A DNA stretch of 63,317 nucleotides, the filler included, from Chiloscyllium plagiosum (taxonomy: Eukaryota), in NCBI RefSeq assembly GCF_004010195.1. It is 6 parts of 6 records of this genome, joined end to end, with 100 filler letters (N's around TTAATTAATTAA, not from the genome) between each part and the next. Parts side by side here need not be neighbours in the genome. Positions count along the whole stretch, not along the records: positions 50,509 to 57,026 come from NW_025210191.1; 5 more parts are not named here. One strand, given 5' to 3'. A program made the translations under genes and the position numbers. Position 1 is the first letter of the stretch, and each line of letters starts with the position of its first letter. The notes below the pieces were generated by a model that was given only the letters and a program-made list of their open reading frames with translations, was not told where the DNA came from and made no database searches. Shown here in pieces: positions 52,256-53,252 of the stretch.

Positions 52256-52328
52256 CCGTCGAGCTGCCCACCCCGTCCAGGACTGAAGCCACAGCGGCCA
52301 GCAGTGCCCACTTGTGTGGACCCAGCAT
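52256..52328 (-). CDS. Signal-peptide exon of a divergently transcribed gene, probable W-category beta chain
   Basis: ATG...ACG G|gtaagt, 73 nt, phase 1. MLGPHKWALLAAVASVLDGVGSST has a hydrophobic core and small residues. Downstream exons are not in the contig, so WB identity is inferred from position only. Confidence 0.6.
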
Positions 52329-53194
52329 CTCGAGAGCTGAGCGACAGCTTCCTCCAGGTGAGACTGACTGACTGAAGAGAGCAGCGATCAGGTTCACATT
52401 CCTAAGCCGCAGGTACATCTATCAGAATCTCCACCCACTGATCCTCCTCAGGCATGCTGACGTTCTCTCTCTCTCTCTTCCCTCCCCGCGATGACTCTTG
52501 ATTCAATTCTTTCTCCTTTCTCCTCCCCACCACCAGTCCGAATCTCTCCCCAATCCTCCCCTCTTGACCTTCTCGCTCCGACTAGTCTCTTTCTCACTCT
52601 CTGCCAGTGAATCCCCCAGCACAGATGGTGTTCATTTGACCAGGCAGAGGACTATCCTATCCCCTCACAAGGGTCTCTGTCGAACCTATCATATCCCCCC
52701 CTCCTCCACGCTCTCCCAGTTCCCAACCCCTTGCCATTCCCTCTCCATGACTCGCCCCCTTTTGACTGTCAATGCTTTTACCAATGGGAAAGGGTTTTCT
52801 CCCTCTCCAGTCCCCCCAGATTCCCCTCAGTCATATCCCCTCCCCCGTATCTCTGAGATCCCCCATTCCTCCCGATGCTGATGTTAATGCTTTGCAGAAT
52901 TCCCCCGGTGTTTTGAAATGTGCTTATTTCCTGCAGTACCTATTAATCTGGACGGTAGCCAAGTGACAGTAATTAAAGTTGTAAAAATAACTGGGATTGT
53001 GAAATGAGCGTGCTGATGGAAACCGGGCGGAGGAGTGCTGTGCGCGTTGGTGCTGAGATCCAGTTACAACACTGAATCACAGCGTCAGTGAGGCTTGAGC
53101 TCATTGCTCTGTCTCTGAGTGACTCCCCGATTGCCATCGCACCGTGTGAGAGACCTCTGGAGAGAGATAGACCCACACAACACACACATACACC
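52329..53194. promoter_or_regulatory. Candidate bidirectional promoter between the two leader exons
   Basis: 866 bp between divergent ATGs. Contains CCAAT (~52781), an NF-kB-like gaattcccc (~52897) and an RFX/X-box-like GTAGCCAAGTGAC (52955-52967). The individual motifs are weak. Confidence 0.4.
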
Positions 53195-53252
53195 ATGGAA
53201 CTCTGTGGGATCATCCTCCTCACCCTGGCGACCAGTGTGAGGGCACAGATCG
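53195..53252 (+). CDS. WA: MHC W-category-like alpha chain gene 2, leader exon
   Basis: Kozak caccATGG, MELCGIILLTLATSVRAQI + G|gtgagt, 58 nt, phase 1. Confidence 0.85.

Follow-up and report, generated by a model that had tools for sequence, protein, structure and literature searches.

Results

A divergent pair of signal-peptide exons

The window analysed here is a 63,317-nucleotide stretch of DNA from the white-spotted bamboo shark, Chiloscyllium plagiosum, made up of six blocks joined by five spacers. In the block at 50509-57026, two signal-peptide exons point away from each other (Table 1). The minus-strand exon encodes 24 residues plus one base and ends in CGG before its donor GTAAGT; the plus-strand exon encodes 19 residues plus one base and ends in TCG before GTGAGT. 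Both are phase 1, and both lie within one contig (51638-57026) with no N separating them. Their ATGs, at 52328 (-) and 53195 (+), are 867 positions apart with 866 bp in between, and the coordinates, phases and strong divergent donors of the original prediction all held when read back from the sequence. A scan for an ATG, a hydrophobic stretch and a phase-1 donor returned ten candidates in 60,935 called bases, both start exons included, so exon shape alone is weak evidence; it is by homology, not shape, that we accept the two exons as real. That homology points to a WA alpha-chain gene and, likely, its WB beta-chain partner, arranged back to back.

Table 1 Features of the divergent gene pair and its block, in order along the window
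Feature	Position	Strand	Details
Spacer closing block on WB side	50409..50508		100 bases: N44, 12-base all-frame stop, N44
N gap, predicted WB intron 1	51249..51637		389 N; ~620 bp beyond leader
WB Nds5-type signal-peptide exon (coding part)	52256..52328	-	Phase-1 donor GTAAGT at 52255-52250
Region between ATGs, candidate shared promoter	52329..53194		866 bp; 52% GC; CpG observed/expected 0.48
Conserved stretch upstream of WB ATG	52339..52377	-	12/13 residues of Hemiscyllium P0035/P0036 N-terminal extension, different frame
RFX/X-box-like 13-bp near-palindrome	52955..52967		One mismatch to RFX consensus
WA DS5-type signal-peptide exon	53195..53252	+	19/19 identical to P0001 and P0007 N-termini; donor GTGAGT
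WA alpha1 (membrane-distal) exon	54138..54410	+	100% to P0001, 82% to whale shark P0003
WA alpha2 Ig C1-set exon	56552..56833	+	Pfam C1-set E 2.9e-17; Y8, F37, L55, W61
Spacer closing block on WA side	57027..57126		100 bases; WA TM/tail exons missing

The plus-strand gene is assigned to WA DS5

The plus-strand gene has the leader, alpha1 and C1-set alpha2 exons in the order found in WA genes. Searching with alpha1 gave four matches among 57 candidates: P0001, a partial C. plagiosum RefSeq protein that ends with alpha2, and proteins from zebra shark, whale shark and C. punctatum. Orthologous alpha1 domains are 78-87% identical, and alpha1 of the whale shark protein P0003 equals, in a by-eye comparison, the published whale shark WA DS5-like row. 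No Pfam model matched WA alpha1, and the best PDB matches of alpha2 were beta2-microglobulin-containing chains. By eye against the Dataset S2 rows of PMC8713811, alpha2 has the W61 typical of WA chains, and F37 replaces W37, accompanied by Y8 and L55. Two further W-category residues, F/Y57 in alpha2 and V30 in alpha1, are replaced by V57 and M30; published DS5 rows in the datasets of the same paper deviate from the W pattern too, with V57 in four of them and I30 in whale shark, so we read the departure as a subgroup trait. Class II alpha-type transmembrane (TM) glycines are seen in the orthologues P0007, P0009 and P0010; the TM exon of the plus-strand gene itself falls beyond the block. By these comparisons the gene belongs to the WA DS5 subgroup of W-category MHC alpha chains, so the 'class II beta-like' label that RefSeq gives P0001 is judged to be off.

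The minus-strand exon is assigned to the WB Nds5 family

With the minus exon and its upstream open frame as query, two proteins among 98 candidates matched, P0005 and P0006, both at 22/24 residues; this search was not exhaustive, as it missed P0014. Leader identity is 22/24 to P0005 and P0014, 19/24 to P0013 and P0015, and 14/24 to P0039. P0005, from the accession series of C. punctatum, is a leader-beta1-beta2-TM chain of WB Nds5 type. Used as a query, it drew 20 matches, 19 of them from sharks and rays and none a C. plagiosum WB Nds5 protein. The type is anchored by P0016, whose beta1 and beta2 are by eye the same as those of the published great white WB Nds5L. With a profile made from 12 leaders of species other than carpet sharks, the minus exon came top among 2591 six-frame segments (E 0.0035). 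When the leader was compared with 191 proteins, 16 matched at E<=1, 14 of them at the N-termini of carpet-shark or lamniform WB Nds5 chains (71-94%), and every match except P0006 was a WB Nds5 record.

We therefore name the family of the partner on homology: the minus exon is taken to be a W-category beta-chain leader of the WB Nds5 family, shared at 22/24 residues with related carpet sharks, in line with the head-to-head beta chain originally proposed. WB DS1 had been considered as the expected partner and was rejected, since the leader leads to Nds5-type chains. The stretch conserved upstream of the ATG matches Hemiscyllium WB gene models that are isoforms of P0014 and is probably 5' UTR. 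An upstream in-frame ATG at 52418 (-) would add 30 residues to the leader; it was rejected as the WB start because the Hemiscyllium extension runs in another frame.

The suggested check for beta1, beta2 and TM exons fared less well. Across the fragmented window, profiles of WB beta1 (best E 0.63) and of the WB TM and tail (best E 0.46) located no WB exon, and the beta2 profile matched only WA alpha2 and IgH domains. Such absence is expected, since the block stops 1.7 kb past the leader on the WB side and contains the N gap, which could accommodate a beta1 exon of ~270 bp and is a candidate hiding place only. With neither these exons in the window nor a C. plagiosum WB Nds5 record, the onward splice of the leader is inferred from relatives. 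Several WB Nds5 paralogues occur per species in those relatives, so the pairing with WA DS5 may not be exclusive. Which leader type goes with which beta1 type also changes from one species to another, and the leader therefore does not fix the beta1 type used in the bamboo shark.

Alternative readings of the minus exon

The exon might be an orphan, the leader of a decayed WB paralogue, with WA DS5 pairing with another WB Nds5 copy. W clusters contain extra WB copies and a pseudogene (PMC10751288), which, with the lack of a downstream WB exon in the window and of a C. plagiosum WB record, gives this idea some footing. The exon nevertheless has an intact ATG, frame, hydrophobic core and donor, the sequence upstream of it is also conserved in the Hemiscyllium gene adjoining WA, and the missing exons are as expected from the block end and the N gap; we regard decay as improbable. 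More improbable still is capture or sharing of the leader by a nectin-4-like neighbour, which would make a nectin-4 chain lacking the V domain, either in place of WB or in addition to it. The basis for it is P0006 (XP_072420669.1, C. punctatum), the one congener model showing a splice to a non-MHC gene, the outcome that had been named as counting against the original prediction. In P0006 the leader (22/24) is joined at an exon boundary to a nectin-4-like C2-C2-TM-tail chain, which from residue 115 onward is 91% identical to Hemiscyllium P0012, the junction falling just after the V domain; the model lies on the 63-Mb contig that carries WA DS5, and its accession adjoins that of WB P0015. The join is nonetheless found in a single model of a single species, and a predictor can join any phase-1 leader to any phase-1 Ig exon. 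Other models on the same C. punctatum contig look damaged, since P0010 runs off frame where alpha1 ends, a stretch that is intact in P0046, and P0015 has a cut tail. In Hemiscyllium the nectin-4-like gene retains its V domain, which lies on a contig of its own (43,712 bp), the bamboo shark window has no nectin exon, and the genes shown around three elasmobranch W clusters in PMC10751288 Suppl. Fig. 3 do not include nectin. SIT1, in contrast, is drawn in the sawfish W cluster of that paper. Given the lone model, its damaged neighbours and the V domain kept elsewhere in Hemiscyllium, the fusion in P0006 is likely a mis-model. Taken as annotated, P0006 would also put a nectin-4-like gene close to a W cluster of the C. 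punctatum assembly.

The exon could otherwise be the missing leader of a WA DS10-like gene at 6443-2300, with which it agrees in strand and phase and whose own block offers no convincing leader. The two are, however, 46 kb apart across three spacers and two IgH blocks, and among the proteins compared the exon matches WB Nds5 leaders and no WA chain; we give this reading hardly any credence. The explanation we favour with high confidence is a WA DS5 gene beside a WB Nds5 leader that likely starts its partner gene, the two likely sharing the 866-bp promoter.

WA and WB linkage in relatives

WA DS5 and WB Nds5 records share a contig in three of four relatives, namely Hemiscyllium (contig size 2,149,616), Stegostoma (173,129) and C. 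punctatum (63,042,482), as read from contig size and accession order rather than from orientation or distance. The Stegostoma accessions are consecutive (XP_059499874-5, then 876-8), and those of Hemiscyllium run on (XP_060678440-2, then 444-6). The exception is the whale shark series, with WB P0040 on a contig of 11,235,856 and WA P0003 on one of 103,000. Among published sequences, the catshark rows DS5L and Nds5L carry matching 82K and 159K suffixes (PMC8713811 datasets), and a head-to-head orientation is on record for WA/WB pairs of sharks (Okamura et al. 2021, PMC8713811, Fig. 5 legend). The ATG layout in the bamboo shark window has this same W-category arrangement. The WB Nds5 models P0005 and P0015 lie on different large contigs, of 57.5 and 63.0 Mb, in what is apparently one species; either one is misplaced or there is apparently a second W locus.

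The intergenic region

The spacing of the divergent ATGs, below 1 kb, is that of bidirectional promoters, and from spacing alone the 866-bp region is a likely candidate for a shared promoter. It has no match elsewhere in the window. We scored 17 consensus motifs against 300 dinucleotide shuffles. Of the motifs pointed out originally, the X-box-like 13-mer (52955-52967) is present but marginal, with P 0.013 on its own and no significance once all 17 motifs are allowed for, and the CCAAT and kB-like motifs reported with it occur only at chance level (CCAAT, 2 observed versus 1.67 expected; kB-like with one mismatch allowed, 7 versus 3.6, P 0.16). In the 866 bp, neither a Y box nor an ISRE or CRE/X2 was found within one mismatch, which justifies the earlier caution that no clean S-X-Y module could be confirmed: in place of X1, X2 and Y in the fixed class II spacing there is a lone RFX-like site. 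The candidate promoter probably dispenses with the standard class II S-X-Y module, leaving an RFX-family site as the sole candidate promoter input found.

Discordant evolution of WB Nds5 domains

We split 17 WB Nds5 chains into domains (P0005, P0013-P0017, P0020, P0022-P0028, P0037, P0039 and P0041); excluded were records that are partial, isoforms that are redundant and one class I match from a bird (P0011, P0018, P0019, P0021, P0029-P0036, P0038 and P0040). In all eight same-species pairs, beta1 is 38-55% identical, versus 74-93% for beta2. The beta1 tree groups chains across orders, including one shark-plus-ray clade (100/99), and the beta2 tree places five carpet-shark chains together (100/99) and four catshark chains together (95/99). 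In approximately unbiased (AU) tests on these domains of ~90 columns, taken from predicted models and with groups named after the trees had been seen, beta1 rejected a carpet-shark clade (p 0.0027) and a catshark clade (p 5.5e-6), and beta2 rejected the beta1 type-B clade (p 1e-15). TM regions and leaders, like beta2, group by species, while beta1 lineages cross orders. Old groove lineages combined with converted Ig domains are the class I pattern, and shark class II shows the reverse (PMC8010645); on this analysis we interpret the beta1/beta2 discordance of WB Nds5 as the class I mode of evolution.

The beta2 domain of these relatives bears on the predicted resemblance of the partner to class I alpha3. 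It upholds the prediction in having P57 in 17/17 chains and W61 in none of 17, the P57/no-W61 combination of WB, and falls short of it at G61, present in only 6/17. In beta1, G35 occurs in 17/17 chains, A32 in 11/17 and D37 in 0/17; the published Nds5L rows also lack D37 (PMC8713811 datasets). All 17 chains have a third beta1 cysteine two residues before the canonical one, and the alpha1 counterpart is cysteine-free in 5/5. The extra cysteine aligns with the HLA-A row at Y99, a residue that we take, in HLA-A2 numbering, to place it on the groove floor. Neither the domain discordance nor the extra cysteine was found in the literature searched, and the SI Appendix of PMC8713811 may cover them.

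Other genes in the window

A second W alpha gene lies on the minus strand, with alpha1 at 6443-6183, alpha2 at 4547-4266 and TM at about 2470-2320. By eye against whale shark rows it appears WA DS10-like, and its block contains no convincing leader exon. A lone C1-set exon at 58212-58490 (+), in its own 1.4-kb block, is by eye most like WA Nds3L alpha2; it is not a third domain of the WA DS5 gene. The five identical 100-base spacers (8626-8725, 24807-24906, 50409-50508, 57027-57126 and 58544-58643) have a 12-base all-frame stop core, and block GC ranges from 0.41 to 0.64. The window holds all three WA subgroups yet no WB exon beyond the leader. Given the spacers, the differing GC and the three WA subgroups without further WB exons, block order is not readable as linkage.

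Two IgH constant-region copies lie on the minus strand, at 14440-21775 and 27885-34632, 91-94% identical over ~13 kb. Each has four CH exons and a secretory tail, both have frame breaks or a stop, and both appear IgM-like in sequence; a recombination signal sequence (RSS) pattern search at these copies found none. Exons of the AID/APOBEC family (59645-60066 and about 61669-61783, +; Pfam NAD1 and APOBEC_N) we presume to be AID. We do not take the window as evidence that W genes are linked to IgM and AID, given the five spacers, the GC differences between blocks and the location of IgM in three species on chromosomes other than those of W genes (PMC10751288).

Discussion

A model for the gene pair

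We propose that the intervening 866 bp would act as a promoter both ways, for the WA DS5 gene (+) and for the WB Nds5-type leader (-), and that the leader would splice to beta1, beta2, TM and tail exons, placed by comparison with relatives in the N gap or past the contig. The two chains would then fold as a class II-shaped heterodimer with class I-type interfaces, W61 in alpha2 and P57 in beta2. We base this step on salamander WA and WB, which arrive at the surface only when together (PMC8713811). The close back-to-back layout would keep both chains co-inherited and matched in expression.

A broader idea, which we put forward tentatively and with more doubt than conviction, is that WA DS5/WB Nds5 serves as a non-classical presenter of modular build. 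Three or more beta1 groove lineages, one of them common to sharks and rays, would sit on a species-homogenised leader, beta2 and TM, as in class I evolution and opposite to shark class II. If so, the extra beta1 cysteine, without a partner cysteine in alpha1, would suit fixed chemical ligand capture, and a short shared promoter would give each groove type its alpha chain.

W-category genes are a proposed intermediate between class II and class I, and functional work on them has been called for (PMC8713811). The beta1/beta2 discordance may be a further class I-like trait of these genes. At 866 bp, the region between the defined ATGs is short enough for cloning in one piece and for assays with CIITA, NLRC5 and interferon, and such regulation tests would tell whether W genes follow class II, class I or neither.

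Comparison with known systems

Our comparisons support the feature as real and the main idea of the original prediction as right, with the partner now named WB Nds5. The head-to-head WA/WB arrangement is already published for sharks, and the bamboo shark pair adds a species record. The closest known system is the shark WA_DS5-like/WB_Nds5-like pair (PMC8713811), with which it shares a class II-type alpha gene with a beta2m-like alpha2 (W61, F37, L55, Y8), a head-to-head orientation to a WB gene and a partner family identical to the published Nds5L. Bamboo shark has 0 rows in Datasets S1-S3 of that paper, and its main text, as far as available, gives no shark intergenic distance or promoter analysis, which the SI Appendix may have. 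The pair also resembles the elasmobranch W-type clusters of Verissimo et al. 2023 (PMC10751288), where WA and WB are multicopy and outside the MHC, and whose WB list includes XP_041035564 (P0016), XP_038638217 (P0041) and XP_051865079 (P0023). That survey, of white shark, catshark and sawfish, has WDR13, FTSJ1, WNK3 and HUWE1 as neighbours.

With conventional MHC class II A/B genes the pair has the two-chain layout in common, and many such class II pairs are oppositely oriented (PMC8713811, Fig. 8 legend). It differs from them in an alpha2 without W37 but with W61, in a partner-family beta2 without W61 (0/17), and in the intergenic region, where no S-X-Y module was found in bamboo shark. The TAP1/LMP2 bidirectional promoter (PMC2191963) likewise sets two immune genes back to back across a short region. 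The genes there are others and the promoter was characterised by experiment, whereas the bamboo shark region, read from sequence alone, has no exact kB or ISRE site.
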